Source of the DNA: Eledone cirrhosa | Taxonomy: Eukaryota | Assembly: GCA_964016885.1 (NCBI GenBank) | Contig: OZ024740.1 | Span: forward strand, 214,334,001-214,398,000 | Length of the DNA: 64,000 nt | Direction of reading: 5' to 3' | In this document: in pieces, positions 6,654-56,043 of the stretch | How the letters are laid out: every line of letters begins with the position of its first letter | Numbering within the stretch: position 1 is the stretch's first letter | Made by a program: the position numbers and the translations under genes | Notes under the pieces: generated by a model | What the model was told of the DNA's origin: nothing | The model's input: only the letters and a program-made list of their open reading frames with translations | Databases searched by the model: none

Positions 6654-6691
6654 AATATGGTTTTATAAATATAGTTTCCATTTGTTAATAT

Positions 6692-6756
<65 letters not shown>

Positions 6757-6986: not shown

Positions 6987-7109
6987 CCAATAAATTCCAA
7001 TCGTCACAACACTGATTCTCTTTTTTTCTGTGATATCATACTCTGCTCTATGAGAGCATCGAGTGCTCGTACGGCCTACCGCATACAGACGACTTAAGCA
7101 TCCAACACC

Positions 7110-7192
<83 letters not shown>

Positions 7193-7223
7193 AAAATGTG
7201 TGTAATCCTTGGTACAGTTAGGT

Positions 7224-7425
7224 ATATTAAGACAGGGGGGAAGAAAAAATGGCTTCACTTGTGCTTTCAACAAATTTATTTTCTTCACAAAATCCCAAAA
7301 GAATTTTTTTCCGGATTAGAAAAAAATTTTTTTTTTCTAATCCGGAAAAAAATTCTTTTGGGATTTTGTGAAGAAAATAAATTTGTTGAAAGCACAAGTG
7401 AAGCCATTTTTTCTTCCCCCCTGTC

Positions 7426-7432
<7 letters not shown>
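7224..7432. repeat. Near-perfect ~205-bp palindrome embedded next to (TA)n
   Basis: TTAAGACAGGGGGGAAG...CCGGATTAGAAAAAAA|TTTTTTTTTCTAATCCGG...CTTCCCCCCTGTCTTAA. Confidence 0.9.
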
Positions 7433-7485
<53 letters not shown>

Positions 7486-7689
7486 TAAATTAGCGAGAAT
7501 CGTATTTCAGCACAGGAATTAACGAAAATCAACATCCGATATGTGTGGCAAGCGCTCGATGATTCATGTGAATCAGAGCTACAACATACGTTAAGGGCCA
7601 AACACACTGAGATGATGGTTAAACATATCATCCGCACAGCCAAAACAAACGACCAAGTAATTCGGGTCAAACAATAAAAATATATGTGT

Positions 7690-8862: not shown

Positions 8863-8889
8863 ATATTTGGGGAGGGTCATATTGTTGTA

Positions 8890-9275
8890 ATAATTGTTTC
8901 TACTTTTGGCACAAGGCCAGCAATAACCCAGTGCATTACTGGTACTTTATTTTATCGACCCTGTAAGGATGAAAGGCAAAGTTAACCTCGGCGGGATTTG
9001 AACTCAGAATGGCAAGGGCCGTAACTCTATGCGTCAAAGCATGGCGTCCGACCCTCTACCGATACTGCCAATTGCCAGAAATAATTGTTTCTACTTTTGG
9101 CACAAGGCCAGCAATTATCCCAGTGCATTACTGGTACTTTATTTTATCGAGCCCGTAAGGATGAAAGGCAAAGTTAACCTTGGCGGGATTTGAACACAGT
9201 CCGTAAAGGGCCGTAACTGTGCTGCAAAGCATGGCGTCCGACTCTCTACAGATACTGCCAATCCACCGCCCTTTT
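8890..9275 (-). mobile_element. Two tandem tRNA-derived SINEs (octopus OK/Meta-domain-like)
   Basis: Reverse complement has A-box TTGGCAGTATC..GTAG, B-box GAGTTCAAATCCCG and central GCCTTTCATCCTTACGGG.TCGATAAAATAAAGTACCAG. Same family as 56.7-57.4 kb and 60.3-60.7 kb. Confidence 0.85.
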
Positions 9276-22473: not shown

Positions 22474-24562
22474 CTAGTTACAGATCAGATGCGATTTCAG
22501 ATGAGGACAGCATCTGAAGATCTCAGTCTTTGAGTTAAGGCAAGCGGAAGTGGCTCTCAAGTTTAGCAAAATCCTATACTTTTCTGTGGTACACAAAGAA
22601 CAATTCTTTGTGACCCTTTGGTACTCCCTCGAATGGTCTAATATAGACCAATCAATAAAGTACGGGATGTTACTATCCTTGCGTTCCCACACCTTACTTG
22701 CGAGGGCCGTTGATGTTCGTTTATCGGAGTGCTTAAAAGAAGCGACATGTGAGTAAAATCTGGTTTTAAACCTGTCCTGGGTCATACCAACATATCGCTT
22801 ACTCCTGGCTGGCTGGTTGTTGATTACCGGTGTTATCTTAGCCTCATAAACAACAGATTTGGTGTTACATTTACCCTGCAATGGGCATTCATCCGGCTTC
22901 CTGCAACTGCATCCTGGATTTATTCTCGTATGGTTTGAACTGGTGATTTTGTACTTCATACATGGGCAACAAGAGTAGCTGATCTTAACTACGTTCCTAT
23001 TAAATATCTTATAATATCTATGATTAGGAGGAAAATGTTTGTCTAATAGTTCAAGGAATTTCCTTCCTACATTAGTTTTGACAGTTAGAGAGAAGGGGGG
23101 TGTGAACCAAATAATCTTCCTTTTCCTGTTATTGTGGTTAGTTTTAGGGGGGGGGGGGGGAGTAGGTAAATAAGAATTTTTTTCTGTAAAACCGCTGTTC
23201 TTAAGGGCTTTATTATAATAGGGGCGGCTTTATTAAAAATGTCTATAGACGAAGATAAGGTAGAAATCCTACGGCTAATGTTAGGAATAAGATTATTAAA
23301 AACTATAGGGGGATGGCAAGATACCTAAGATTTTCATTAGGTTTATGATAGGGTTTAAAAGAGGCGGTAAGTAGATCAAGATTAATATCAAGAAAGTTAG
23401 CATTAGTAAGGTTCGTATCTATAGTGATTTTAAGGTTAAGGTTAGCAAAAGTATTGATTAAATCTTTACGGAATTTATCAAGGTTATGGCCGTTGGTGGT
23501 ATGAGAAACTGCTAATTCGTCATCACGGTATAAACCGATATTATGGGACGGAAATTTCTCTTTGAGGGTGTGGAGAAGGAATAATCCTACTAAGTCACAC
23601 ACATCCGCACTGTCATATGAACCCATTGCAACATCAAAAGAGTTTTCAGGGTTTGACTTTTTAACCCAAATATTATCATTAGTAAAGAGTAAAGTTTTTC
23701 TAGCATGAAAGATAATGTCTTCTAATTTAGAAATATTAATGAAGGGTCTTGCAAAATCTAAGGCATTAGTTAATAAGGAAACAGTAATAGATGGGTAAAA
23801 ATCGACAATATCAAATTGGGTAAATCTACACTTATTTTTACCTTGTATAATATTGAACCAAGAAATAACAGAGGAAGTATTTAGCCACTGTGATAGGCCA
23901 GTGTTAGTTCTAATTTGGAGAATTATTTTTCTTAAGATTTTCTTACTTGCAAGGCCAACCTCGGATTTAGCCGGTTTAATCAGTCTACAACTAGGTCGAT
24001 TAGTAAAGTCCAATTTATGGTCTTTAAGGGTAATATATTCTTTACGCTTAGCTAGGCATTCAATCCGGTTATCTATTTGTAAAGAACTATCTAGTTCTTT
24101 AGCTTCTTTATTGATAGTATTGTAGGTATTATTATTAGTTAATTGATATTTATTGGTAATACTATTAGTTAAAAGTTGGTTATACAAAGTACTATTAACT
24201 TCAAAGAGATATTTAGTTTTATCAGAAAGAACAAAAGTGTTTGTAGAATTTCTAAAATTAGAAATATCGTTAGATAGTTTAGTTTGAAAGTTATTATTGA
24301 ACTTACGAAATTTGATATCACTAATTAGATTAACAAGGTCTAATTCGAAGTTGGCCATGTCTTTAATTCTAGGTGGATATTTACGGGATTTGATGTCAAA
24401 ACAATCTTTAGTATCAGCACTGAATAGTCCATCGTAAACCATTGCCTTCCATCTCATTCTTTTAACGACTTGTTCGATTTTATCTATGAGGATTTTGGTA
24501 TAAGTTGTGTTGGAAGGAGTGGGTATATTTTTGATTGAATAATCCAATTCATAAAGATCCAT
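22474..24562 (-). pseudogene. Full-length but frameshifted Hydra-like PLE ORF (RT + GIY-YIG)
   Basis: 23303-24562 has YSIKNIPTPS..KRMRWKA, FDIVDFYPSI, MGSYDSADV and LYRDDEL. 22474-22959 has CSCRKPDECPL, VVYEA..YVGMT..FKTRFYSH and CSLCTTEK..CCPH. Frameshifts lie in 22960-23303. Confidence 0.92.
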
Positions 24563-24735
24563 AGTGTATGTTGGTTAAATTCCTGAAAACTGTAGAGTGC
24601 TCAACTAATCGGGCTGGAAAGTGCCAATCGTAAATGTAATATAGAATATGCTTCAATCAATCCCGGTTGGAGCTGTATAAATTTATATATATATATACAT
24701 ATATATATACATATATATGTATATATATATATATT

Positions 24736-24999: not shown

Positions 25000-25000
<1 letters not shown>

Positions 25001-25218
25001 GAAGGCGTGTGGCTGAGTGGTTAGAGAATTGGATTCGCAATCGTAAGGTTGTGAGTTCGATTCCTGGACCAGGCGATGCGTTATGTCCTTAAGCAAGACA
25101 CTTTATTTCACGTTGCTCCTTCTACCTGGAGTTGCGACCGATAGATAGTATTAGCAATTGGAAAGACCAACGGAAACATTGTTCCCTCGGTCCGATTTGA
25201 CGAAAGTCGATCGTTTAA
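25000..25218 (+). mobile_element. tRNA-derived SINE (second family)
   Basis: A-box TGGCTGAGTGG, B-box GAGTTCGATTC, then TGTCCTT.AGCAAGACACTT. Second copy at 42339-42550. Confidence 0.85.
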
Positions 25219-25219
25219 G

Positions 25220-25272
<53 letters not shown>

Positions 25273-25285
25273 TATATATATATAA

Positions 25286-25316
<31 letters not shown>

Positions 25317-25360
25317 CACAATATATTAACAAATGGAAACTATATTTATAAAACCATATT

Positions 25361-25425
25361 TATTTCATTATACATATTTCAAGGACCCCAAAGCAAATTA
25401 TGGTGGGCTTTCATCAGATAAAATA
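25361..25425 (-). ncRNA. Type I hammerhead ribozyme in pLTR fragment 25320-25500
   Basis: Reverse complement reads TATTTTAT-CTGATGA-AAGCCCACCA..TGGGGTCCTT-GAAA-TATGTA-TA-ATGAAATA. Same family as 6589. Confidence 0.8.
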
Positions 25426-25504
25426 TAATATAAATCAGTTTTATAAACAAATATTGACATACCCTTAAAGGATGCAACCATGTCGTTTGGAAGCTCCCGG
25501 ATAG

Positions 25505-26172
25505 TGGGTTACTAATGTAGTATATAGCATAAGATGTACTGAAGGACAATGTAGAGACAAAAATATAGTGTACATAGGTGAGACAGCTCGTAGTGTAGGG
25601 GAACGGATAAATGAACACTGGCGAGACCTTCAAGATAGTAAAGAATCATCTGTACTCTACCAACATGCTAAAATAGAACATAAGGGTAAATTAGAGAACA
25701 TAGAAATAAAAATAGAATCTACACACATAAAAGACGCAATGTTCAGACAAATCACAGAGGCATTAAACACAAAACAATTACAACCAAAATTAAATAGAAA
25801 ACATGAGGGGAACAGCAACATCACAACTTACAATTAAGGACAAAATGAAAACACACACGCACATAGAACAAACCTGTAACATGTAAATAAACAAATAAAT
25901 AAACGAATATAAACACACACAGCATGCGCAGACTGAGCACACAACACACACAGAAACAAGATAGCGTAGGAGAGGCACAAAAACGAAGAAAAGAATCCCC
26001 AGTCACTTAAGAGGTCACAGAATGTGTGACGAAAGAACTTTGACAATATATAAACAACCATCTGGTTGTTGAACCAACCAACCGGAAATTTATAAATTCC
26101 TAAATTTATACATTTATTATAATAAATTGAAGTGAAGTCAACTGGTGCGTGTGTTTCTTATTGGCAACATGA
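25505..26172 (+). mobile_element. 5'-truncated PLE (MTLPKY family): GIY-YIG remnant + 3'UTR with core-mutated HHR (26002-26044)
   Basis: NVVYSIRCTEGQC..YIGETARSVGERINEHW..LYQHAKIEH..RQITEA; ends ATGACCCTCCCAAAGTATAACAAT(AT)n. Confidence 0.85.
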
Positions 26173-26189
26173 CCCTCCCAAAGTATAAC

Positions 26190-26516
<327 letters not shown>

Positions 26517-26674
26517 TATTGTTATACTTTGGGAGGGTCATGTTGCCAATAAGAAACACACGCACCAGTTGCTTTCACTTCAATTTAATTTAATATATAT
26601 TTATAAATTTACAAATTTATAAATTTCTGGTTGGTTGGTTGGTTCCACAACCAGATAGTTGTTTATATATATAT

Positions 26675-26719
26675 AGTCATAGTTCTTTCGTCACACACTC
26701 TGTGACCTCTTCAGTGACT
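26675..26719 (-). ncRNA. Type I minimal hammerhead ribozyme
   Basis: Reverse complement of 26907-26951. Confidence 0.8.
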
Positions 26720-26906
26720 GGGGATTTCTTTCTTCGTTTCTGTGCCTTTCCTTTCTTCTATCCTACGCCATTTTGTTTGTGTGTGGGTTGCGTGCTCAGT
26801 TTGCCCGGATGTGGCGCATGCGCAAACTGAGCACGCAACCCACACACAAACAAAATGGCGTAGGATAGAAGAAAGGAAAGGCACAGAAACGAAGAAAGAA
26901 ATCCCC

Positions 26907-26951
26907 AGTCACTGAAGAGGTCACAGAGTGTGTGACGAAAGAACTATGACT
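26907..26951 (+). ncRNA. Type I minimal hammerhead ribozyme
   Basis: AGTCA-CTGAAGA-G-GTCACA GAGTG TGTGAC-GAAA-GAAC-TA-TGACT. Confidence 0.85.
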
Positions 26952-27166
26952 ATATATATATAAACAACTATCTGGTTGTGGAACCAACCAACCAACCAGA
27001 AATTTATAAATTTGTAAATTTATAAATATATATTAAATTAAATTGAAGTGAAAGCAACTGGTGCGTGTGTTTCTTATTGGCAACATGACCCTCCCAAAGT
27101 ATAACAATATCGGTTTCAACACACGATTTCAGATAAAGAATCTTGCTAAACAAATTCAGAAACGAA

Positions 27167-27197
<31 letters not shown>

Positions 27198-27220
27198 AAT
27201 ATATATATATAAATAAATAT

Positions 27221-27340
27221 ATAAATTGAAACAAAATGAAAACGAAATTTCATTTCTCACTCTTAGTATGGCACTTACTTAAATGTAAGTATGCATGTAT
27301 ACGTACATACATATATGTATACAGACGTACAGTAGCATGC

Positions 27341-27379
<39 letters not shown>

Positions 27380-27630
27380 CATATGCATACAGGTACACAT
27401 ACATACATGCACGTATCAGTTTAGCGGCGCTTATTATAACGTCGCTTTGTTCGTTTGTAAACAAACTGAACACCCTGAATTTATGCCAACAAAAAGGTGA
27501 CGTGGTTGCCTTAACACCGTATGGCATAAATTCAGGCTGTTCAGTTTGTTTACAAACAAACAAAGCGACGTTATAATAAGCGCCGCTAAACTGATACGTG
27601 CATATATGTATGTGTACCTGTATGCATATG

Positions 27631-27662
<32 letters not shown>

Positions 27663-30209
27663 TATGCATGCTACTGTACGTCTGTATACATATATGTATG
27701 TACGTATACATGCATACTTACAATAAATATATATATATATATATACGATATTAAATAAATGGAAACTATATTTATAAAACCATATTTATTTCATTATATA
27801 TATTTCAGGGATATCATATTAACAATATGTTATGCCTTCCTCAGACAAAATACAATATAGACAGTTTTATAGATAAATAGATTTGACATACCGTTCAACA
27901 TCGACTTGTATTTGAGAAAGTTGATTTGGCAGTGAAAAAATTGTAAACAGAAAGAAAGAAAGAGAGAAAGAAGGAAAGAAAGAAAGAAAATGAAGAAAAA
28001 GAAGAAAAAGAAGAAATGCCTGTAACAAAATAGAGAGATGGAAAGATAGATAAAGAGAAGAACTTCATGTAAAGAAACAGAGATATATATATATAGAGAG
28101 AGGAAATAGATAGAGATAGATATATATAGAGAAAAGTAGGTAGTTGGAACGTATCAATGATACATTTATTTATTTATTTATTTATTTAGCTCTAGTATTA
28201 ATGTAAGGGAGATATATGTGGTTAGGGAAGAAACCAGCCGTTATATAGAGAGAAAAATGAAAAGTAACCAGACATAGGCGAGGCATAATTTAAAAACCCT
28301 ATGTTTTAATGTAGAAGTATTAGTACGTATAAAAACCAGGCGCTATAATGTAAATATCAGTATTCCTGAATGAGACACGTATCCATAATGTGTGAAAAGT
28401 AATGATCTTATGTTTAGTTTTAAAAATTCATATGTTTATATGATAACTACAAACATCGATGTGAATTTACGTGATCAATTCCGCAAATCTCTATTTCACA
28501 CGGAGAACATTCTCATTGTGCTATAAAAATTTAAGTATACATATATGTGTATATATATACACATATATATAGAGTCTATATTAATTTTAACAATACTATT
28601 CTTGTCTTTACTCTACATGATTATCTATCAAGCAGAAATAGAGAACAGATTTCAATATATTAATAAAAAAATATCAGAAACAAAAACAAAAACAAAAAAT
28701 AATAATGATAATAATAATAATAAATAATAATAAAATAGAAAACTAAAAAATAAAAAATATTACAAAAAATATTACATATTAAAAATAAAAATATTAGAAA
28801 ATATTACAATAATAAAAATAAACCGCAAAGATCAACCCTTCAAAATTAATTGACAATATATTGCCAAGTTCATTATAAGCACCAGAGTCGAAAACAGATA
28901 AAGCTAAAAATTATTTATCAAATCGCGTCTAGCAAAAATCATTTCAAAAAGTTTAGGATGCCCATTTGGTCTACATGTGTTCTTATATTTAATATAGAAG
29001 TTTATCTAGTGTAACGTTTATTCGAAATATTTGGAGCATCAACTTTTAGGGTAGTTTAATTTTTCATGAAGAATGTTTAAATAAAAATAAAAATAAAAAG
29101 AAGAATAAAAAGAAGAAATCGAAAGATTTATCGGCTAGTTTCCCAAATATACTACATTTTAAATTTAAATTTATATTTAAAAGTTGAGTTTAATCTATGT
29201 TTGCAGCAACTGAATAAATTTGTCCGTAGATTAAGGGAATTTTTAGATTTTAGTATAAAGAATATCTCCTCTGCGCAGAGGTCACATGTCTCAGAGGATG
29301 AATTAAAAGGAATCCCTCTTGAGACTATATTCCAAGCCGTCGAATATCTAACGTTATCTAGCTTAAGTTGCCAGAGTACGCCTGATAGTGCTGTTGAAGA
29401 TTTTTTGCTTGGATCTGTGAAAGAATTCTTGTGGTTATTATAGCGAAGTTTAAATTCCGTCGATGTGGAACCGACGTAGTTAAAAGAATTAGAGTCAGTT
29501 TTAACATTACAATTGTATATTATATTTTTAACTAAGCAGTTGTTATTTAACGGACATTTAGATCTATCTCTACAGTTACATTTGTTAACTTGTATATTAT
29601 TTATGCTATTATCACTAGGTTTTAAGTTCCTATTATTTATTCTATTAATATTTTGTGCTAAATTTTTGGTGGATGAGTAGGTTAATTTTATAGTATGTCT
29701 ATTGAAAATTGAGTGATACCTATGTGTTCTAGGGAAGCGATTATCAAGAGCTTTAAAAAATAGTTTAGCGATGTGGGTTTTAATGTTTAGTGAGAAAGGG
29801 GGGGCAAACCAAATTATGTTCCTAGTTCTATTTCTTTTTTGGCTTTTGGAATTATTGTAATGCTTTCTATTATATTTGTTAAGGTTGTTGCCGTAATTAA
29901 AATAGTTGTTATTTTGTTTAGTTTGTCTATCATTATCTATGTACATAATCTTATCACTATATCCTGCTCTAGCTAACGCTTCATTGTAGTACTGGGCTTT
30001 TTCGTCGAAAATCTTTCTATTAGACGAGATTCTAGAGATACGTTTTTGAACAGAGTTTACTATAGTGTTTTTGACAGATCTGGGGTGGTTAGAGTTAAAG
30101 CTGACATAGTTTAAGTTTTCATTCAACTTGTGAAAAGGATAGTGAAGACATGTGTTGAGATTTAATGTTATATCTAGGAAATTGACTATTCTATGGTTGT
30201 TCTCAATTT
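27221..30209 (-). mobile_element. Inverted 5'-truncated duplicate of the intact PLE 3' half, including ~520 bp of its downstream flank
   Basis: Reverse complement of 32056-35038 with only a few substitutions. ORF 29152-30126 equals the C-terminal part of the 737-aa ORF, with one A/V difference. Confidence 0.95.
27787..27852 (-). ncRNA. Hammerhead ribozyme (inverted pLTR copy)
   Basis: Reverse complement of 34413-34478. Confidence 0.75.
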
Positions 30210-30655
30210 TAAATTATGCCTCGCCTATGTCTGGTTACTTTTCATTTTTCTCTCTATATAACGGCTGGTTTCTTCCCTAACCACATATATCTCCCTTACA
30301 TTAATACTAGAGCTAAATAAATAAATAAATAAATAAATGTATCATTGATACGTTCCAACTACCTACTTTTCTCTATTTATATCTATCTCTATCTATTTCC
30401 TCTCTCTCTCTATATATATATATATCTCTGTTTCTTTACATGAAGTTCTTCTCTTTATCTATCTTTCCATCTCTCTATTTTGTTACAGGCATTTCTTCTT
30501 TCTCTTCTTTTTCTTCATTTTCTTTCTTTCTTTCCTTCTTTCTCTCTTTCTTTCTTTCTGTTTACAATTTTTTCACTGCCAAATCAACTTTCTCAAATAC
30601 AAGTCGATGTTGAACGGTATGTCAAATCTATTTATCTATAAAACTGTCTATATTG

Positions 30656-30721
30656 TATTTTGTCTGAGGAAGGCATAACATATTGTTAATATGATATCCC
30701 TGAAATATATATAATGAAATA
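30656..30721 (+). ncRNA. Hammerhead ribozyme in the 5' pLTR
   Basis: TATTTTGT-CTGAGGA-AGG..CCT-GAAA-TATATA-TA-ATGAAATA. Stem I is 8 bp with two G.U pairs; stem III is palindromic. Confidence 0.75.
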
Positions 30722-30899
30722 AATATGGTTTTATAAATATAGTTTCCATTTATTTAATATCGTAAATATACTCCAAATACTTGTTGAGTGCTTTTATATC
30801 AGTTATAAATATTTACTAGTTGTAACCCAACAATTTAAATATAACTTTCCATGTATCTTGCTCCAATACTGTTGAGCGCTTTATATTATAACTGAAAAA

Positions 30900-33113
30900 A
30901 TGGAATTCTTTAAGATTACTTCCTCTTTAAAAGACATACCTATACCTAGAAACAAAGACTTTATAAAACAATTAATAGATAAATCTGACTCTTTTATAAG
31001 GAGAATCAGGTGGCGAGCATTCCACTTTGATAAATCTAATATAAATGAAAATGTCTCGGACTTAAACAAAGTTTTCAAATCTAAAAGAAATCCACCCCCT
31101 AACAAACTTTTATCTGACTTTGAAAACGATATAATTTCTATCATACAAGGGGTCAAATTCAAGAGAAACTTCAAAGGCCAGGAATATCTGAAAGGCATTA
31201 AGGATAATATTGAGAGCTTAGAGAAAACTGAGAAGATCTTGGTGAAATCTGACAAGACCAACAACCTCTATGGAGTGCAGAAAGACATGTATAATGGCCT
31301 CATACTGAAGGAACTGAGGAAAAAGTACAAGGTAGCAGATAAAGCCGATTTTGAGAAAATGAATGTCGAAGCATCTTGTATAATGCACGAGTTGGAAATT
31401 GAGAAGAGAACACAACCTTTCGTGCCCAGGAAACCGAAGATCAATATGAAAGATCACAAAAGGAATTTTGAAAATGATTTGCCAGTTAGATTGATCGCAC
31501 CATCAAAATCGGACCTGGGCAAATTAAGCAAAAACATTCTTGACAGGGTGATACAGCAAATTAAGAACTTGGATTGTTTACCTAACCTGAGCTTGTGGAA
31601 GGGAACTGGAGAGGTTGTTGAGTGGTTTAAGCAAATTAAATATAACAATAATAATAAGTTTATTCAACTTGATATTGCTAACTATTATTCTTCTATTACC
31701 CCTAATCTACTAAATAAGGCACTAAATTACGCATTCAAACATACAGACCTAACTAGCAATGAAATGCACATTATATTATCGGCTAGGAAAACATTGATAG
31801 AATTTAATGACCAACTATGGACCAGAGCAGATAGAGATAGCAATTTTGACATTACTATGGGATCATCCGACTCAGCTCAGGTAATTGACCTTGTGGGCTT
31901 ATTTTTAATCAATTCGCTACATAGGAAAATATCTGGTACTACCGGAGGTTTATATAGAGATGACATGCTTTTACTTATTGATAATAATAACTCTGAACTA
32001 AATAGAAAAAGAAAACAAATTACACAATTTTTTAATTACTTTAATCTTAAAATAGAAATTGAGAACAACCATAGAATAGTCAATTTCCTAGATATAACAT
32101 TAAATCTCAACACATGTCTTCACTATCCTTTTCACAAGTTGAATGAGAACTTAAACTATGTCAGCTTTAACTCTAACCACCCCAGATCTGTCAAAAACAC
32201 TATAGTAAACTCTGTTCAAAAACGTATCTCTAGAATCTCGTCTAATAGAAAGATTTTCGACGAAAAAGCCCAGTACTACAATGAAGCGTTAGCTAGAGCA
32301 GGATATAGTGATAAGATTATGTACATAGATAATGATAGACAAACTAAACAAAATAACAACTATTTTAATTACGGCAACAACCTTAACAAATATAATAGAA
32401 AGCATTACAATAATTCCAAAAGCCAAAAAAGAAATAGAACTAGGAACATAATTTGGTTTGCCCCCCCTTTCTCACTAAACATTAAAACCCACATCGCTAA
32501 ACTATTTTTTAAAGCTCTTGATAATCGCTTCCCTAGAACACATAGGTATCACTCAATTTTCAATAGACATACTATAAAATTAACCTACTCATCCACCAAA
32601 AATTTAGCACAAAATATTAATAGAATAAATAATAGGAACTTAAAACCTAGTGATAATAGCATAAATAATATACAAGTTAACAAATGTAACTGTAGAGATA
32701 GATCTAAATGTCCGTTAAATAACAACTGCTTAGTTAAAAATATAATATACAATTGTAATGTTAAAACTGACTCTAATTCTTTTAACTACGTTGGTTCCAC
32801 ATCGACGGAATTTAAACTTCGCTATAATAACCACAAGAATTCTTTCACAGATCCAAGCAAAAAATCTTCAACAGTACTATCAGGCGTACTCTGGCAACTT
32901 AAGCTAGATAACGTTAGATATTCGACGGCTTGGAATATAGTCTCAAGAGGGATTCCTTTTAATTCATCCTCTGAGACATGTGACCTCTGCGCAGAGGAGA
33001 TATTCTTTATACTAAAATCTAAAAATTCCCTTAATCTACGGACAAATTTATTCAGTTGCTGCAAACATAGATTAAACTCAACTTTTAAATATAAATTTAA
33101 ATTTAAAATGTAG
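30900..33113 (+). CDS. PLE polyprotein: reverse transcriptase + C-terminal GIY-YIG endonuclease (737 aa, Hydra-clade-like CxCx5C linker)
   Basis: Uninterrupted ORF. RT motifs LDIANYYSSI, MGSSDSAQV, LYRDDML, VNFLDITL. Thumb SNHP..AGY. Linker CNCRDRSKCPL. Endonuclease IIY..YVGST..FKLRYNNH..CDLCAEE..LN. Confidence 0.95.
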   Translation: MEFFKITSSLKDIPIPRNKDFIKQLIDKSDSFIRRIRWRAFHFDKSNINENVSDLNKVFKSKRNPPPNKLLSDFENDIISIIQGVKFKRNFKGQEYLKGIKDNIESLEKTEKILVKSDKTNNLYGVQKDMYNGLILKELRKKYKVADKADFEKMNVEASCIMHELEIEKRTQPFVPRKPKINMKDHKRNFENDLPVRLIAPSKSDLGKLSKNILDRVIQQIKNLDCLPNLSLWKGTGEVVEWFKQIKYNNNNKFIQLDIANYYSSITPNLLNKALNYAFKHTDLTSNEMHIILSARKTLIEFNDQLWTRADRDSNFDITMGSSDSAQVIDLVGLFLINSLHRKISGTTGGLYRDDMLLLIDNNNSELNRKRKQITQFFNYFNLKIEIENNHRIVNFLDITLNLNTCLHYPFHKLNENLNYVSFNSNHPRSVKNTIVNSVQKRISRISSNRKIFDEKAQYYNEALARAGYSDKIMYIDNDRQTKQNNNYFNYGNNLNKYNRKHYNNSKSQKRNRTRNIIWFAPPFSLNIKTHIAKLFFKALDNRFPRTHRYHSIFNRHTIKLTYSSTKNLAQNINRINNRNLKPSDNSINNIQVNKCNCRDRSKCPLNNNCLVKNIIYNCNVKTDSNSFNYVGSTSTEFKLRYNNHKNSFTDPSKKSSTVLSGVLWQLKLDNVRYSTAWNIVSRGIPFNSSSETCDLCAEEIFFILKSKNSLNLRTNLFSCCKHRLNSTFKYKFKFKM

Positions 33114-34412
33114 TATATTTGGGAAACTAGCCGATAAATCTTTCGATTTCTTCTTTTTATTCTTCTTTTTATTTTTATTTTTATTTAAACATTCTTCATG
33201 AAAAATTAAACTACCCTAAAAGTTGATGCTCCAAATATTTCGAATAAACGTTACACTAGATAAACTTCTATATTAAATATAAGAACACATGTAGACCAAA
33301 TGGGCATCCTAAACTTTTTGAAATGATTTTTGCTAGACGCGATTTGATAAATAATTTTTAGCTTTATCTGTTTTCGACTCTGATGCTTATAATGAACTTG
33401 GCAATATATTGTCAATTAATTTTGAAGGGTTGATCTTTGCGGTTTATTTTTATTATTGTAATATTTTCTAATATTTTTATTTTTAATATGTAATATTTTT
33501 TGTAATATTTTTTATTTTTTAGTTTTCTATTTTATTATTATTTATTATTATTATTATCATTATTATTTTTTGTTTTTGTTTTTGTTTCTGATATTTTTTT
33601 ATTAATATATTGAAATCTGTTCTCTATTTCTGCTTGATAGATAATCATGTAGAGTAAAGACAAGAATAGTATTGTTAAAATTAATATAGACTCTATATAT
33701 ATGTGTATATATATACACATATATGTATACTTAAATTTTTATAGCACAATGAGAATGTTCTCCGTGTGAAATAGAGATTTGCGGAATTGATCACGTAAAT
33801 TCACATCGATGTTTGTAGTTATCATATAAACATATGAATTTTTAAAACTAAACATAAGATCATTACTTTTCACACATTATGGATACGTGTCTCATTCAGG
33901 AATACTGATATTTACATTATAGCGCCTGGTTTTTATACGTACTAATACTTCTACATTAAAACATAGGGTTTTTAAATTATGCCTCGCCTATGTCTGGTTA
34001 CTTTTCATTTTTCTCTCTATATAACGGCTGGTTTCTTCCCTAACCACATATATCTCCCTTACATTAATACTAGAGCTAAATAAATAAATAAATAAATAAA
34101 TGTATCATTGATACGTTCCAACTACCTACTTTTCTCTATATATATCTATCTCTATCTATTTCCTCTCTCTATATATATATATATCTGTTTCTTTACATGA
34201 AGTTCTTCTCTTTATCTATCTTTCCATCTCTCTATTTTGTTACAGGCATTTCTTCTTTTTCTTCTTTTTCTTCATTTTCTTTCTTTCTTTCCTTCTTTCT
34301 CTCTTTCTTTCTTTCTGTTTACAATTTTTTCACTGCCAAATCAACTTTCTCAAATACAAGTCGATGTTGAACGGTATGTCAAATCTATTTATCTATAAAA
34401 CTGTCTATATTG

Positions 34413-34478
34413 TATTTTGTCTGAGGAAGGCATAACATATTGTTAATATGATATCCCTGAAATATATATAATGAAATA
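34413..34478 (+). ncRNA. Hammerhead ribozyme in the 3' pLTR
   Basis: Identical to 30656-30721. Confidence 0.75.
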
Positions 34479-34604
34479 AATATGGTTTTATAAATATAGT
34501 TTCCATTTATTTAATATCGTATATATATATATATATATTTATTGTAAGTATGCATATATACGTACATACATATATGTATACAGACGTACAGTAGCATGCA
34601 TATA

Positions 34605-34638
<34 letters not shown>

Positions 34639-35157
34639 CATATGCATACAGGTACACATACATACATGCACGTATCAGTTTAGCGGCGCTTATTATAACG
34701 TCGCTTTGTTTGTTTGTAAACAAACTGAACAGCCTGAATTTATGCCATACGGTGTTAAGGCAACCACGTCACCTTTTTGTTGGCATAAATTCAGGCTGTT
34801 CAGTTTGTTTACAAACGAACAAAGCGACGTTATAATAAGCGCCGCTAAACTGATACGTGCATGTATGTATGTGTACCTGTATGCATATGTATATATATAT
34901 GTATATATATATATATATGCATGCTACTGTACGTCTGTATACATATATGTATGTACGTATACATGCATACTTACATTTAAGTAAGTGCCATACTAAGAGT
35001 GAGAAATGAAATTTCGTTTTCATTTTGTTTCAATTTATCGTTTTCGGTATGCCTGACCGATTTAACTCACTCAATAAGCAAATTAGGCTGCTCAGCCGTT
35101 AATTTTCATAAGGAAAGTATATACTTTCGAACGTTCAACTATCTGGCAGATGGGTAA

Positions 35158-35200
35158 ACGGTGCTGATGATAGCTAACAAGCTCGAAACTAGTACATCGT
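35158..35200 (+). ncRNA. Type I minimal hammerhead ribozyme (family A)
   Basis: ACGGTG-CTGATGA-TAGCT AACA AGCT-C-GAAA-CTAG-TA-CATCGT. Confidence 0.9.
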
Positions 35201-35219
35201 TCCTGTGTCAGTGTTGAAC

Positions 35220-35405
35220 TTAGGTGACTGCAGGCGCCGAAAAAGTCGGCCCTTCTGTTTAATAGCTTGGTTCCGCCATGAAGTATCTCAAGTGTATCAC
35301 TAACACAGAGGTTGCAAATACCAGACCCACCTCTGTCTGAGGAAACCTTTCTAACCACGGACCAGACCAAAGAGAGCGGGGTCTTTTCAAGTTTGAGCTT
35401 CCAGA
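35220..35405 (-). pseudogene. Isolated Hydra-like PLE endonuclease C-terminal fragment
   Basis: Reverse complement translates IWKLKLEKTPLSLVWSVVRKVSSDRGGSGICNLCVSDTLEIL..LLNRRADFFGACSHL. Confidence 0.8.
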
Positions 35406-36076
35406 TTTATTATAATGTTCGGTTTGTTTGTAAACAAACAGCCCGAATTAAGTCGTACAGTGTTCGGCAACCATCGTTGTTCTTTTGTTCAACACTGACA
35501 AAGGAACGATGAAGTTAATAGCTGTCATCAGCACCGTATACCTTCCTGTCAGTCAATTGAACGTTTGAAAGTATATACTTTCCTTATGCATATTAACGGC
35601 TGAGCAGCCTAATTTGCATATCGAGTGACTTAGTCGGCCGGGCGTACCGAAAGCGATAAATGGAAAAATGAAATTTCATTTCTCACTCTTAGTACGGCTG
35701 ATACTTAAATACAAGTATGTATACGTACATACATATATGTATACAGACGTACAGTAGTATGTATATACATACAAACCGAACATTATAATAAATGTTCGGT
35801 AAACCCATACGTACATATATATATATGTGTGCATGTATGTATGTATATACATACTACTGTACGTCTGTATACATATATGTATGTACGTATACATACTTGT
35901 ATTTAAGTATCAGCGGTACTAAGAGTGAGAAATGAAATTTCATTTTTTCCATTTATCGTTTTCGGTACGCCCGGCCGACTAACTCACTCGATATGCAAAT
36001 TAGGCTGCTCAGCCGTTAATATGCATAAGGAAAGCATATACTTTCAAACGTTCAATCATCTGACAGGAAGGTATTC

Positions 36077-36115
36077 GATGCTGACGATAGTTAATAAGCT
36101 TGAAACTAGTTTATC
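36077..36115 (+). ncRNA. Hammerhead ribozyme (family A, weakened stems)
   Basis: GATG-CTGACGA-TAGTT AATA AGCT-T-GAAA-CTAG-TT-TATC. Confidence 0.65.
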
Positions 36116-36324
36116 ATTCCTTTGTCAGTATTGAACAAAAGGGCAACGACGGTTGCCGAACACTGTACGGCTTAATTCGGGCTGTTTGTTTACAAACAAA
36201 CCGAACATTATAATAAATGTTCGGTAAACCCTACGTACATATATATATATATATGTGCATGTATCTATGTATATACATACTACTGTACGTCTGTATATAT
36301 ACATGTATGTACGTATACATACTT

Positions 36325-36373
<49 letters not shown>

Positions 36374-37679
36374 AGTGTAGTTATATTTTGTCACGATCAT
36401 ACCAATAGTAAGTTTCATGTCCATAGTAACAGACATTTTAATAGTCAGATGATCAATGTGAACGTTACACATACTAGTGTGATATGATTTCAACTACCCG
36501 CTGGGCCGCCTTCACGTAGATTATTAGCGGGGTTTGTAATTTTTTACCTCTCTGAGTCTAGGCATGTACGTCAGATTTGGCATTCAATTTTTCTTTTCAA
36601 TTTTGAATATTAGTCAAATTTTGAAAAGTTTAAATAAATTAAGATAAATTTTATGTGTCTGTGTATTTTCACGTTGGTTCACAAAATAGTAAATCCGCTT
36701 AATCTGATAGCCTTGTATTTTTTAAAGATTTACATTATTCATAAAGTTTTTGTGGATATCGAATTTTTTCAATTTCAAAAAAATTGTTTAATAACAGGTG
36801 ACACATTTTCAGGGAAAAACGTGATTGGAATAATGATATTTAAATTTACCCTCCATCATACCAATATCATGTTTTTTCTTGGTTTCACTTTGTGGAGATG
36901 ACATCCATTTATAAATAATTAACTTGGCGTTTTATGTCTGATTACGAAAGCATGTACCTTTATTTCTACACGAACAAGTTACCTTCCCTGTTTTAACTGT
37001 GTTTCTTATAATTTACATAATTAATATAACAGTTATAATTAGTTTGAAATTATTTCTATTAAATAATTGCATGTAACATTGGTTGATTGTGCAATATTTA
37101 TCGATTAGATGTAATTTTATTTTAGCTTCGTTAAATCAACTAGCAGAAACCACCCTTTGGGTGGTTTTCTGCTAGCACGTGTAGTTTGTATATTGATATT
37201 ATACGCAAGTATATATACATGTAGATATGATACATCAAATAAAATCATAATTGACAATATAAACAGAAATTGAACGAAGACTGTGTTACACTGTCTTATG
37301 TAATCAGTAACGTAATCCATGATACATTAAAAAAGACGAAATTATATATAACTGCATTAGGAGAAAATTAGTGACAGAAAATTAGTAAGTTTATTTAAGT
37401 GATCGCCACCGGAAGTGTTGACATCACACACTCTCTCTTTCTATATATATATGGTAGTTGATGTGGTGGTGGTGGCAACGATATACCGGAAGTGCAACTT
37501 TGAAAAGAAGTCAATTCTAAATTATTTAGTTTTACGAAATTATTTTTGTTTACGAAATTTAGTAGACAAATTATGTAATATTCATTCATTATTTATTCAA
37601 AGTACCAGTAATGCACTGGGTAATTGCTGGCCTTGTGCCTAAAGTAGAAACAATTATTTATTCAAAGTAATGAGGCAGT

Positions 37680-39240: not shown

Positions 39241-39703
39241 CATACATATAATATTAATACCCAAGTTATTGATTTATATAAATAAATAAATAAGTATATA
39301 TATATATATATATAGTAATAATAATAAATTTGAAGACTAAAATCCAAAGAGGGCTCGATAAGGATAAATATATATCAAATATATAAGAACCGTAGAGCAA
39401 ATATTTATTAAAATAACAGATTAAAGTTTAAGCAAATAATCGGTGCTTTCACCCTTAACGGGATCTTCTGAAACTAACAAAGTCAATCTGTGAACGCAGA
39501 AGTGAATATTTCAAAAAACGTTGCAACCGAAGGAAGACAGGAAAACGATACTTTGGTTCGTGGAAAAAACGATACTTTGGTTCGTGGGAAAAAACGAATA
39601 TAATACCTCATTATTTGGAGCGGTGAAAAATAATTTCACACAAAGACAAAATCACGTTTATGGTATAAAAGAAGTCGTAGACAAATATATATATACACCA
39701 CCT

Positions 39704-39739
<36 letters not shown>

Positions 39740-40075
39740 CCCTCGAAACGGCTTGAGCTCAGCCGTCGGGGTCCTACTCGTTCCTATTATCCACTCTACT
39801 ACCCTAAGGATTGAGTACTTTGGTGCGTTATGGTCCACCTGGTTCCTTACCACATTTACTTCGTTATATATATATATATATATATATATCCAGGTGGTGT
39901 ATATATATATATATATATTGGAATAACTGCTCTGAAATAGCGATATATATGTGAATATAGACATAGAATATTCGAAAATATTCTGTATGTTTATAATAAA
40001 CATTTTGAAGACCTAATCGCTATAGAATAGAATACGTCACGTATTACAATTAGATTCTCGATAAAAGCAAGGGAA

Positions 40076-40118
40076 GTAATCTACGCGTTTCATTCTTATT
40101 AGAAATCTTCAGGACTAC
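40076..40118 (-). ncRNA. Type I minimal hammerhead ribozyme
   Basis: Reverse complement of 40357-40399. Confidence 0.8.
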
Positions 40119-40356
40119 ATATCCAGTGCTTTTATCGAGAATGACACAGCTAAAGACTTATAGAATACTTAGCTGTGTACAGGATATTTTCGAATATTCT
40201 ATGTCTATATTCACATATATATCGCTATTTCAGAGCAGTTATTCCAATTTCTAATTTCTGCCGGACCGGCAACCGCTCTTTCAAACCAGTTCCTGTACAC
40301 AGCTAAGTATTCTATAAGTCTCTAGCTGTGTCATTCTCGATAAAAGCACTGGATAT

Positions 40357-40399
40357 GTAGTCCTGAAGATTTCTAATAAGAATGAAACGCGTAGATTAC
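40357..40399 (+). ncRNA. Type I minimal hammerhead ribozyme
   Basis: GTAGTC-CTGAAGA-TTTCT AATA AGAAT-GAAA-CGCG-TA-GATTAC, with palindromic stem III ACGCGT. Confidence 0.85.
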
Positions 40400-40545
40400 T
40401 TCCCTTGCTTTTATCGAGAATCTAATTGTAATACGTGACGTATTCTATTCTATAGCGATTAGGTCTTCAAAATGTTTATTATAAACATACAGAATATTTT
40501 CGAATATTCTATGTCTATATTCATATATATATATATATATATAAT

Positions 40546-44515: not shown

Positions 44516-44907
44516 TATATATATATATATATATATAATCATTCTCTTATATATTTTAAAATGCATAAGAACTGTGAAACCGATAAAGGAAACAAATAAA
44601 TATTCTTAAAAAGACTCCAGTTGGGGGAGGGGGGTTCTCGCGTCAGATGCGAGAAGAAGAAAGTGTGTTTTTGTTTCTGACGCAAAGACGATTGTGGTAG
44701 CCTGTTGTTATTTTAGCTCGCCTAATGCGAGAAAGTTCTCCAAGAAAGTTAACCAGGAATCTTTAAAACCTCCCCACTGAAGTTAACAGAGAACTTACTA
44801 GATCTCCAAAATCAAACTGTAAAATTATAATATTATAAAATTAAATTAAATTGTTTAGAACTACAAGTGAAGTCATTCTTTTCCTTTACACTCACATATA
44901 TATATAT

Positions 44908-47192
<2,285 letters not shown>

Positions 47193-48235: not shown

Positions 48236-49358
48236 GAGCTATCTGGACGACTGCTTCATCCTCTGGCATGAAAGTATAGAAAGACTGATTGAGTTTAAAA
48301 CCCTTCTAAATGGACTCAACACAAACTTATAATTTACAATGGATTACAGCCATGAACAACTCCCTTTCCTCGACATCCTCATCAAGAAAACAAACAACAA
48401 AATAGAAACAGACATATACTACAAACCCACAGACTCCAAACAATATCTACCATTTACCTCGTGCCACCCTCGCCATACCAAAATGGCAATTCCTTATAAG
48501 CTAGCCAGAAGGATCTGCAAAATAGTTTCAGATAAATACACATGCTACACACGACTAGAAGAATTAAATAACACACTTATCAGCAGAAACTACCCACCAT
48601 CCCTAATCAACAATGGATTCCAACGTGCCCTAAAACTCAACATCCAGGACACCCCAAACTCAGGAATGAACCGCAACAGAAAACTCAATCATACATCTCC
48701 ACACACAACCCCCTCAACATTGAGGCATTCGACACCATCCTCCAGAACATTCCTTTACTAAAAAGAGACCCACGAATGAACAAAATCCTCCAAACACACA
48801 ACATCATAAAGAGCAAAAGACAACTTAAATACATAAAAAAACATCCTTACACAAGCCAAAATCCAACCAACCCTCACAATGGACCCTACAGTAAAAAAAT
48901 GCGGAAGGCCCAACTGTGGTATATGCATAAATCTAATAGAAGGTTCAACATTCCATTTTAAACAAAGACAACATTTCACAGTTAAACACAACTTTACATG
49001 TGCATCTGAAAACCTAATCTATGTTCTGACCTGCTCAGGTTGTCGAGAGCACTACATAAGACAGACAAAATACAGCCTCCGACAACGTATGACCGTCCAT
49101 AGATCACAAATCAAAATACAGGAATACAGAAAGATTGCTTTTAGTGAACATATCGCCAATTGTGCACCTAACCAACATCCAAACTTTAAAATTTCCCCCA
49201 TTTACAAATTCATAGACAACACTTCTTTCATCCATCGTACCAATAAGGAAACGTACTACATTAACAAATTCCAACCTCTACTTAATGGACTAAACTTCGG
49301 ACTAAAGGAACTAACAGGATCGAACAATGAATCAAAACCAAATTCCTATATTCTCTAA
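48236..49358 (+). pseudogene. 5'-truncated, frameshifted Neptune-like PLE ORF (RT thumb + GIY-YIG)
   Basis: YLDDCFILW, LPFLDILI, YYKPTDSKQYLPFTSCHP, KKCGRPNCGIC, TCASENLIYVLTCSGC..YIRQT..LRQRMTVH. Confidence 0.9.
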
Positions 49359-52264: not shown

Positions 52265-53410
52265 TTAAACCTTATTTAATGTTGGTCTATATTTTTGAAT
52301 AAACATATTTTCCTTATTTATTCGCATTTGTTCTGTTGTATTGTTAGCGCAAAGGTAAAATGGGAAGACTTGGAATTTGGGTGTCTTATTACTTGCGCAA
52401 ATGTCTAGATGTGCACTTAGTGGTATTTGTCTCGTGGTTGGATCTCGTAATTGTTGGCGATGAACTGTCATTCTGTTTCTGAGTGTGAGTTTAGTTTGTC
52501 CTATATAATCTTCATTGCATCCTTTACATTTAATGGCATAAATTAGATTTTTTGATGAGCAAGTGAAGTGATTTTTTACAGTAAAATTTTGTCCTGATTT
52601 AAATGTATACGTGTTGCCTTCAATGAGGTGAGTGCAGGTTCCACAATTAGAGCGACCACATTTTTTGATACTTGGTTGTGGGTTTGTGGTAGGTAATTTG
52701 GCATTGGTGAGTAATGTTTTCAGTGATTTTGGTTGTCTTTTGCTTTGGATTATTTTGTGTGTTTCAAGGGCTTTTTTCATTCTTGGGTTTTGTTTTAGTA
52801 GTGGGATGTTATTGTGAATAGTGTTGTAAGCTTCCGCATTTCTTGGGTTGTGTGTTGAGATATATGATAGAATATTGGACGTACCTTGAATTTGTTTCTG
52901 TTTCCGTAATTCATCAATGCCTATTGCTTTAGCCCTTTCTATTCCATTATTTATTAGTAATAGTGGGTACTCTCTCTCAAGTAGAATTTCCTTTAATTCT
53001 TGAAGTCTTTTATTTCGCGTTTCATAATTGGAGACAATTGTGCAAATTCTTCTTGCTAGGTTAAAAGGAATGTTCGTCTTCGTGTGCTTTGGATGGTTGG
53101 AGGTGAATAGCAGATATTGTTTGGAATCTGTTGGTTTGTAGTGTATGTCAGTTTCGATATTTGTGTCTTTTTTTGTGATTAAGATGTCCAGAAATGGGAG
53201 TTGATCTTGGCTGTATTCCATTGTGAATTGGATGTGGTTATTGATGCCGTTTATTAAGTTTTTGAAATCCTTCAGTTGGTCGAGTGTGTGGGACCAAAGA
53301 ATGAGGCAATCATCCAAGTAGCGTTTCCAATTCTCTGATAAATATTTGTGGAAGTTCAATCCGTATTTTGATTTGGACTGTTCATATATCTGGACTTCTA
53401 AGTATGCCAT
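52265..53410 (-). CDS. 5'-truncated Neptune-like PLE ORF, uninterrupted 381 aa (RT C-half + GIY-YIG); 3'UTR runs to about 51060 with a degenerate HHR at 51192-51229
   Basis: WKRYLDDCLILW, LPFLDILI, SNHPKH, KKCGRSNCGTC, TCSSKNLIYAIKCKGCNEDYIGQT..LRNRMTVH..H..E..LN. Truncated at (TA)n. Confidence 0.9.
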   Translation of the reverse strand: MAYLEVQIYEQSKSKYGLNFHKYLSENWKRYLDDCLILWSHTLDQLKDFKNLINGINNHIQFTMEYSQDQLPFLDILITKKDTNIETDIHYKPTDSKQYLLFTSNHPKHTKTNIPFNLARRICTIVSNYETRNKRLQELKEILLEREYPLLLINNGIERAKAIGIDELRKQKQIQGTSNILSYISTHNPRNAEAYNTIHNNIPLLKQNPRMKKALETHKIIQSKRQPKSLKTLLTNAKLPTTNPQPSIKKCGRSNCGTCTHLIEGNTYTFKSGQNFTVKNHFTCSSKNLIYAIKCKGCNEDYIGQTKLTLRNRMTVHRQQLRDPTTRQIPLSAHLDICASNKTPKFQVFPFYLCANNTTEQMRINKENMFIQKYRPTLNKV

Positions 53411-53412
53411 GA

Positions 53413-53442
<30 letters not shown>

Positions 53443-53447
<5 letters not shown>

Positions 53448-53727
53448 ATTCACCGAACATTTATTATAATGCTGGGTGTGTTTGTAAACAAACATCCCAT
53501 ATTAAGCCGTAGTGTCCAGCAACCATCGTTGCTCGTTTGTTCAACAAAGGAACGCTGTACTAGTTTCAAACTTATTAGCTATCGTCAGCAACGTATATCT
53601 TCCTGCCAGATTGTTGAACGTATATACTTATCTTATGCATATTAACGGCTGAGTAGCCCAATTTGCATATCGAGTGGGTTAATCGGCCGGGTGCACCCAA
53701 AACGATAAACGGAAAAAATGAAACGAA
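53443..53727 (-). mobile_element. Retrozyme-like family A copy with HHR at 53552-53594
   Basis: Reverse complement reads ACGTTG-CTGACGA-TAGCT AATA AGTT-T-GAAA-CTAG-TA-CAGCGT. Octamer at 53661. Confidence 0.85.
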
Positions 53728-55060: not shown

Positions 55061-56043
55061 TTCCTTGAATCTCAGTCATTGATGTTGGTTAACTGGAAAG
55101 TCCGTTGGATTGAATATCAAGCCACTACCTGCAGCCTCAGATATTCAGGACGTATCGGAGGGTTCTTGCTGTTCCAAGCAAGCATGCCTTTTGAAGCGTT
55201 CCAAAAAGCGTGAAGGGGCCGATTTTCTTTAACCATCCCTGGAAACCTTTGGAGATAGTCCCCAGTGCGCCTATGACAATCGGGATCACTTTGACTTCAT
55301 GGCAGTTCCAAATCCTTTTCACCTCCCACTTTAGGTCCTGGTATCGGTTAATTTTCTCCCTCTCCTTCTCTTGCACTCTCGTGTCGAACGGGCAGGCCAC
55401 ATCCACAATCAGGCACGATCTTTTTTCTTTGTCCACAACCACCAGGTCAGGTCTATTGTGTTCCAGTTTTTTGTCCGTCTGTATCCTAAAATCCCACAGC
55501 ACCTTCACCTGACTGTTCTCCATCACCGCCTCTGGCCTATGCTCATACCATTTCTCAGAATGTGGTAGATTGTTTACTTTGCACAGGTGCCAGTGGATCA
55601 CCCTGCCCATCACATCGTGTCTCCAGCCCTTATAGTGGGTCTGGGCTAGGTGTTTACACTCGGACACAATGTGAGCCACAGTCTCCTCTCTCTCTCCACA
55701 GATCCTGCACAGTGGGCTAGCCTCCTCCTTGTAGATATGGTGCTTCAACCACTTCGTGTTGAGGGCCTGCTCCTGCGCAGCCATTAGCATTCCTTCTGTA
55801 GCCTTTTTGAGGTCTCCTCTTCTCAACCAGTTCCATGTTTGTGGATCTCTAAATTCAGTTTTCTCAAAGAAGGTACTATGAAGGGATTTTCCCTTAAGGC
55901 TGCTCTTCCTCCTTGATGTTATTTCCTCCTTGGATATCCCCTGGCCTACTGTCCCCTCCTTCAGTACAGCTCTGAGCATTGGCTCCTTACTATAGGTCAC
56001 GTATTTGTATAGGTTGTTTTTCTCCATCTGAACACAGTCCTCT
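55061..56043 (-). mobile_element. 5'-truncated R4/Dong-like non-LTR retrotransposon (CCHC zinc knuckle + restriction-like endonuclease)
   Basis: AAQEQAL, CRICGEREETVAHIVSEC, RHD, NRPDLVVVD..IVDVACP..EK..RY, PIVIGALG. Flanked by (TAA)n on both sides. Confidence 0.9.

Follow-up and report, generated by a model that had tools for sequence, protein, structure and literature searches.

The question raised by the locus described here is how a Penelope-like element (PLE) can come to carry an inverted copy of itself that does not stop at the end of the element, but runs on into the neighbouring DNA. The window, by which we mean the whole stretch of 64,000 nucleotides analysed (Eledone cirrhosa, contig OZ024740.1 of assembly GCA_964016885.1, positions 214,334,001 to 214,398,000, forward strand), contains a Hydra-type PLE lying in a quasi-palindrome of 7.8 kb, in which 27221-30209 is the reverse complement of 35038-32056. 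Self-BLAST of the window aligned the arms over 2993 columns with 99.27% identity (E=0), 8 mismatches and 4 gap openings, and a global alignment agreed, so that the inverted arms of ~3 kb around a 1.85-kb spacer, described in an earlier note on this DNA, are borne out. The spacer (30210-32055, 1846 bp) is unique sequence. When compared to its neighbours the structure is atypical, and it is best read as a DNA-templated foldback arm, the inverted arm being likely copied from DNA that folded back on itself and not from element RNA.

In the global alignment, the element part of the arms (2466 bp) shows 5 substitutions (right coordinates 32147, 32792, 32875, 33383 and 34183), and the flank part (517 bp) shows 3 (34556, 34665 and 34796) together with all 4 indels, which are microsatellite differences. 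Within the open reading frame (ORF), the difference between STAL and STVL that had been noticed earlier is real and falls at codon 659, while the remaining two differences are synonymous. Transitions make up 6/8 of the substitutions (p=0.02 against 1/3), and the independent divergence of the arms since their formation amounts to about 0.27%. At the inner junction, the TTT microhomology to the truncated 5' pseudo-long terminal repeat (pLTR) is seen as expected, TTT at 30207-30209 being common to the arm and the pLTR. Beside it there is an imperfect match of ~10 nt, offset by 6 nt, at about 32042-32052; with a scoring picked post hoc, 28 of 3731 element positions score equally well. At the outer junction, ATAAAT (27221-27226) is common to the end of the left arm and the left (TA)n/TAAA tract, where this hexamer is present five times within 27158-27226. 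The duplication passes the 3' end of the element (34519-34521), the (TA)10 tract and the palindrome (34546-34977) of a repeat designated family A, as the earlier note had claimed; the tract at the boundary between element and target is the same in both arms, and the arm crosses this boundary unbroken. Also in agreement with that note, the flank continues seamlessly on the right, where family A runs on to 35219, and on the left the arm stops within the (TA)n/TAAA tract. The size of the copied flank, put at ~520 bp, stands as well: the right copy measures 517 bp and the left one 523 bp. However, this flank is family A repeat DNA and not unique sequence.

The strongest clue to the origin of the left arm, which the earlier note had passed over, is provided by the window itself, where ordinary head-to-head insertions carry a tail on one arm and the focal locus carries none on either. 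From 28 inverted pairs in the window, 16 were kept as separate head-to-head units, to which the focal locus was added (n=17); the 12 dropped pairs were parts of the focal locus (4), redundant or cross family A pairs (4), nested partial repeats (2), an inward-facing pair (1) and a pair of copies of different age (1). The offset in arm length before the microsatellite amounted to 26-87 nt in 10 control units, to 8 nt or less in 2 and to more than 150 nt in 4. Beyond the microsatellite, 15/16 control units score 10 or less, and the remaining one scores 30 on simple TA-rich sequence. Only the focal locus, among all 17, combines a zero arm offset with a shared flank (local score of 57 over 60 nt). 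In two related pLTR families the longer arm ends at the equivalent of about 30846, and neither focal arm does. In vitro, the PLE tail arises from two start sites of the reverse transcriptase (RT) (PMC11167929), and a second arm that had been primed on RNA would therefore be expected to end at the tail. The inverted 5'-truncated copy adjoins the 5' pLTR, as in a canonical PLE head-to-head insertion. The arms of canonical insertions end at the element ends, often with one tail, whereas here both arms pass the element end (site 1) and enter the flank. A common end point and a common flank mean that one of the two arms is a copy of the other together with its flank; the left arm is not the usual second RNA-primed product, but repeats the integrated right end. 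The features of the locus are collected in the table.

Table. Features of the focal locus and its immediate borders, in window coordinates
Positions	Strand	Feature	Remarks
26520..27166	.	Family B head-to-head insertion, left neighbour	Site-1 end on the left, tail of about +57 nt on the right
27167..27226	.	Left end of the target: (TA)n interrupted by TAAA	Last 6 nt (ATAAAT) common to the arm
27221..27743	-	Inverted repeat of right-flank sequence 34522-35038, comprising (TA)n, the family A palindrome and a further ~60 nt of family A	Alignment
27744..28295	-	3' pLTR in inverted copy, carrying a hammerhead core motif (27844)	Ends at site 1 without tail
28296..30209	-	Inverted copy of the 3' untranslated region (UTR) and of ORF codons about 386-737	Frame open over 29152-30213 but lacking a start codon
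30207..30209	.	Inner head-to-head junction	TTT microhomology and adjacent ~10-nt imperfect match
30207..30764	+	5'-truncated upstream copy (5' pLTR) with a hammerhead core motif (30664)	
30765..30899	+	Tail and 5' UTR	
30900..33113	+	Intact ORF of 737 aa: PLE RT (YRDD) and C-terminal GIY-YIG-type endonuclease	Hydra-clade motifs
33114..33969	+	AT-rich 3' UTR	
33970..34521	+	3' pLTR with a hammerhead core motif (34421)	Element 3' end (site 1) at 34519-34521
34520..34545	.	Right side of the target, (TA)10	
34546..35219	.	Unit A1 of family A, a head-to-head palindrome (34546-34977) with a plus arm extending to 35219	Hammerhead-like motif at 35164

Which of the two sides is native was judged from family A, an ORF-less, tandem-forming repeat of ~450 bp with two recurrent 3' ends about 90 nt apart and a hammerhead-like motif of its own. 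One weak Rfam match to Hammerhead_HH9 (17.6 bits vs 52, E=3.4) falls within family A. The earlier note had asked whether the copied 520 bp might be part of the element consensus, and within the window this is rejected: the 5' pLTR continues into the tail and 5' UTR and not into flank sequence, and family A occurs without the focal element at 2529-2988, 35405-36322 and 53454-53727. The duplication ends inside unit A1, at 35038. All five family A ends seen lie at the two recurrent sites or at a truncation, and 0/5 correspond to position 35038. The divergence of A1 amounts to 7-11 mismatches per ~100 nt before this position (three copies) and to 9-16 mismatches per ~90 nt after it (four copies). 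The lack of a family A end at 35038 and the even divergence of A1 indicate that the right side is most likely native and the left arm the copy. Using the halves of the family A palindrome as internal outgroups, the flank substitutions were polarised, and derived states were assigned to the right copy at 34556 and to the left copy at 27604 and 27473; one further difference between palindrome halves is common to both flank copies and therefore older than the duplication. Polarisation of A/V659 with homologues failed, the column being variable.

As regards family A as such (2529-2988, 34546-36322 and 53454-53727), it resembles a non-autonomous PLE derivative, for which 'retrozyme' may be an appropriate label. 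Between two family A units, at 35220-35405, there is a C-terminal endonuclease fragment of another Hydra-like element on the minus strand, which meets A1 tail to tail, an unusual orientation.

In target-primed reverse transcription, a target strand serves as the primer and remains joined to the complementary DNA (cDNA) made from it. The reading that we prefer, with a probability of about 0.5, is that the left arm was made during integration by foldback of the new cDNA, which copied its own strand and continued into the priming target DNA. The endonuclease would have cut the (TA)n tract between families B and A, and the right-hand 3' end would have primed reverse transcription at site 1, proceeding through the pLTR and the ORF into the upstream pLTR and stopping at 30207. 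The 3' end of the cDNA would then have annealed to positions 32056-32058, 1.85 kb further back on its own strand. From there a DNA-dependent polymerase (of the host, or the RT of the element) would have copied ~2.47 kb of cDNA and, as cDNA and primer are covalently linked, would have gone on through 517 nt of target DNA. Finally, the new end would have been joined to the left (TA)n/TAAA tract by the 6-nt microhomology and filled in. Such a foldback would account, as a single event, for both junctions, for the missing tail and for the even divergence along the arm. The divergence of the flank is not lower than that of the element (3/517 vs 5/2466, Fisher p=0.15), which fits one event, although its discrimination between models is weak. 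The DNA-templated foldback put forward as one option in the earlier note is thus supported by the arm alignment, the in-window control and the private mutations of both arms, while we infer its timing during integration, the order of events and the polymerase used.

Comparison with known systems leads in the same direction. As in canonical Penelope head-to-head insertions, an inverted copy is joined to the 5' pLTR and the target is AT-rich (PMC3846280, PMC11167929). In the canonical cases described, captured DNA lies between the pLTRs and the tail marks one end (PMC3846280; Frangieh et al. 2024, PMC11167929). In contrast to these descriptions (PMC3846280, PMC11167929), the inverted arm of the focal locus repeats DNA outside the 3' end of the element, which points to a DNA template. 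For PLE inverted repeats, self-priming on an antisense RNA template has been proposed (Arkhipova et al. 2013, PMC3846280). In the case of the human L1 retrotransposon, self-annealing with 2-bp microhomology has been reported to produce inverted duplications (Mendez-Dorantes et al., bioRxiv 2024.12.14.628481), and foldback inversions are rare according to Nam et al. 2023 (PMC10191854; 4 cases, 0.3% plus 0.1%). The focal locus resembles L1 foldbacks as these sources present them, with self-annealing over 2-3 nt of microhomology and local DNA duplicated in inverted orientation (PMC10191854, bioRxiv 2024.12.14.628481), and can likewise be compared with the L1 outcomes in bioRxiv 2022.05.18.492429, where an inverted duplication is primed by a 3' end annealed to itself. 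The marks of an L1-type foldback, a 3-nt inner and a 6-nt outer microhomology and an inverted flank copy, are present. The L1 cases described, however, are somatic and human, with 52-220 bp of extra synthesis on the 5' or reciprocal side, and L1 foldbacks on the primer side appear there as chromosome-scale rearrangements (PMC10191854, bioRxiv 2024.12.14.628481), whereas the focal locus shows a fixed or inherited arm of 3 kb, a 1.85-kb loop and local resolution in a different class of retroelement. DNA foldback copying is known for human L1 and so far only hypothesised for PLEs.

Several points weigh against a foldback at integration. It is a single locus. Eight substitutions are too few to date the inner against the outer part of the arm, and a later repair would therefore give the same sequence. 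The 5' pLTR differs from each other pLTR copy by 2 substitutions and 1 microsatellite indel, and those two differ at 1 position, a distance that leans slightly to a younger arm without being significant (P=0.19); neither this excess nor the inner-versus-outer divergence (p=0.15) separates the models. The 16 control units are short and mostly ORF-less, and full-length insertions may differ from them. Furthermore, the polymerase had to cross the A1 palindrome (199 predicted pairs, -214 kcal/mol as single-stranded DNA) and passed 51 earlier 6-nt matches to the left tract before it stopped, which leaves the stop point unexplained. With respect to L1, the local inverted duplications reported lie on the reciprocal 5' end and involve small hairpins, and a 1.85-kb loop on the primer side is unlike those cases (PMC10191854, bioRxiv 2024.12.14.628481). 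In addition, the spacer could have been inverted by recombination of one arm with the other; which of them first held the full ORF is thus not provable, and a target-site duplication is unreadable inside the microsatellite.

The alternative that survives best, although we consider it unlikely, is a repair after integration, which, like a transduction from a donor elsewhere, the earlier note had not raised. An ordinary head-to-head insertion would have come first. When the DNA subsequently broke within or close to the left (TA)n, the homologous right arm would have been invaded, 517 bp copied past the end of homology and the repair completed through microhomology; an identical product would be expected from a template switch during replication. 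Breakage and recombination are frequent in long inverted repeats and in (TA)n tracts. This explanation predicts the same final sequence and junctions, and the slightly greater distance of the 5' pLTR from the other two copies speaks for it. However, it requires two events and predicts a younger outer part, yet the flank is not more similar than the element, and private flank mutations are found on both arms. Taken together, the two local DNA-templated explanations, foldback at integration and later repair, are probable.

We regard it as distinctly less likely that the apparent flank is the DNA of a donor elsewhere, brought in by 3' transduction. A read-through RNA would have carried the element and a downstream family A cluster, the true right end would lie further out, for example at the family A end 36322, and the left arm would stem from another priming event, or from a foldback, with its stop at 35038. 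Position 36322 is indeed a recurrent family A end followed by (TA)n, unprocessed RNA is described as the main PLE substrate in vitro, with weak priming from RNA 3' ends (PMC11167929), and capture of host DNA by PLEs is on record (PMC3846280). Against this, ~6 kb would have to be reverse-transcribed through several long palindromes and past the element's own start sites, and the left end is no known start site.

Still less probable is the reinsertion in cis of a read-through transcript, the other option of the earlier note, in which a transcript of the resident copy entered the (TA)n just upstream and a microhomology-mediated central deletion created the junction at 30209. An RNA template would account for the local flank, and (TA)n tracts have been targeted repeatedly, as the adjacent units at 6071-7490 and 25220-27226 illustrate. 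This option is disfavoured: a second insertion within ~1 kb of its source, a non-canonical start at 35038, where 0/5 family A ends lie, and a deletion would all be required, and the age difference that it predicts between the arms and the pLTR pair is not detectable.

An assembly or library artefact, either a chimeric read or two haplotypes joined in inverted orientation, is very improbable, and the structure is in all likelihood real sequence. A divergence of 0.27% could be allelic, and inverted PLE structures are stated to trouble assemblers (PMC8557442). However, both junctions are new adjacencies that overlap by as little as 3 and 6 nt, a (TA)n that might cause a misjoin is absent from position 35039 of the right copy, the 1846-bp spacer is unique, and the predominance of transitions as well as derived alleles on both arms speak against it, in support of the earlier argument that this is not a simple assembly duplicate. 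Finally, the reverse polarity, with the left block (family B, (TA)n, A1, (TA)n, element) as the original and a right copy fused by homology to resident family A, so that the right side merely looks seamless, is the least credible of all and mostly rejected, since no family A end and no step in divergence coincide with 35038, even though 27221-27715 resembles a complete head-to-head unit between two (TA)n tracts and has an offset of ~60 nt like the family B tail.

The element itself is assigned to the Hydra type of PLEs by motifs and homologues rather than by a tree. Hydra-clade marks are RWK, DKT, CxCX5C, CxxC and CxH, the absence of CCHH and a single ORF with a C-terminal GIY-YIG domain, together with a canonical hammerhead ribozyme in the pLTR, insertion into (TA)n and a length generally <3 kb (PMC8557442); Hydra-1_Obim is recorded for Octopus bimaculoides in the supplement of that paper. 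In the focal ORF, YRDD is found at aa 352, RWR at aa 37-39 (RW[K/R] in 35/40 aligned homologues), DKT at aa 118-120 (kept in 35/40), a CxCX5C linker at aa 596-604, CxxC at 694-697 and CxH at 721-723. The endonuclease pattern IIY...YVG...R...H...E...N is invariant or nearly so in 40/40 homologues, and the aligned homologues have no conserved cysteine pair within the GIY-YIG core, that is, no CCHH. The glycine of a GVKF string at aa 84 is not conserved among homologues, so an N-terminal GxKF/Y is not conserved either. Pfam returned 0 families for the focal ORF at E<=0.1, and the call of RT and endonuclease domains therefore rests on motifs and homologues. Among 7997 candidates scored, 156 relatives were obtained at E<=1e-20; the best are 38-39% identical, and the top named relative is from Argonauta hians, which makes an octopod host likely. 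Assignment to a Naiad or Chlamys PLE is rejected: the endonuclease is C-terminal, the motif is DKT and not DKA, and hammerhead core motifs are present.

All three pLTR copies show these core motifs, accompanied by stems I and II. In an Rfam scan of 25000-37500, no hammerhead match to the pLTR motifs was among the 150 of 152 matches listed, and their folding energy is not unusual (z-score 0.62); 0 of the matches listed reached the gathering score, and miRNA-hairpin models gave chance matches on palindromes. The (TA)10 tract follows directly on the 3' end of the element, and related pLTRs in the window likewise end in (TA)n. From pLTR end to pLTR end (30765-34521) the unit measures ~3.76 kb, and no second copy of the focal family was found within the 64-kb window. 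The layout of inverted truncated copy, truncated 5' pLTR, ORF, 3' pLTR and (TA)n is the usual PLE arrangement. The locus is thus like the Hydra-clade PLEs described in PMC8557442 in its ORF layout, motifs, putative hammerhead core, (TA)n, partial tandem and inverted 5'-truncated copy, and unlike them in its length, 'generally <3 kb' being a tendency and not a rule. It also differs from the descriptions given there in that the inverted copy takes in target flank and neither arm has a tail.

Other parts of the window are likewise rich in PLE sequences. Two more Hydra-like ORFs, both frame-broken and with similar RWK/DKT or CxC and CxxC motifs, lie at 119-1965 and 22474-24574, and fragments of other PLE types lie at 48333-49358 and 52265-53413 (52268-53413 matches Pfam GIY-YIG, E=3e-7). 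At 6071-7490, four different head-to-head units stand end to end with only (TA)n between them, three with a one-arm tail, and this array indicates serial targeting of (TA)n. The (TA)n tracts 25220-25316, 26371-26519 and 27158-27226 have plus-strand TAAA interruptions in common (3, 6 and 5 copies), which suggests one tract split by successive insertions; the family B insertion seems to lie in what was once a single TAAA-interrupted tract, now represented by 26371-26519 and 27167-27226. Smaller canonical layouts (inverted repeat, direct repeat with tail, interior, repeat) at 39919-40535 and 44906-47074 are usable as controls. At 39686-39918, a single family D unit lies between inverted 10-bp islands (39696 and 39890), each set in (TA)n; this could represent a flank foldback like that of the focal locus on a small scale, and is ambiguous because 8/10 island bases also occur inside family D. 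Apart from PLEs, 55137-56099 and 56272-56643 hold the C-terminal portion of the ORF of a non-LTR retrotransposon (zf-RVT, E=6e-4), together with a partial second copy and a 124-bp tandem repeat. A 49-bp satellite of at least 67 copies (96% identity, strong C/A skew) occupies 60712-64000 and continues past the end of the window; (CAC)n/(ACT)n repeats take up the ~2 kb before it. A 192-bp tandem of two copies at 8889-9262 may be a common octopus SINE-like repeat.

The origin of the tandem and inverted structures of PLEs is stated to be unresolved (PMC8557442, PMC11167929), and no description of a PLE arm copying its own flank was found in our literature search, which included few subscription papers and not the older Drosophila work on Penelope; within the same scope, no papers on Penelope together with transduction were found. 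In an inverted arm made of element sequence only, RNA and DNA templates are indistinguishable, and an arm that runs into the local flank tells them apart. The weight of the present case is modest, because it is one locus, the copied DNA is itself a repeat and comparable L1 repair outcomes are known. If flank-copying arms recur genome-wide, they would provide a simple count of DNA-templated events and would mean that PLEs are able to duplicate host DNA outside their own ends. Tentatively, and against the odds as we judge them at present, PLE inverted arms might be made regularly by DNA-templated snap-back of nascent cDNA, the focal locus being an overshoot past the primer junction. If this were true, PLEs would be a germline source of multi-kilobase palindromes and of inverted duplications of host DNA in (TA)n-rich genomes, and an arm with flank and without tail would be a searchable signature by which DNA-templated arms could be told from RNA-primed ones.

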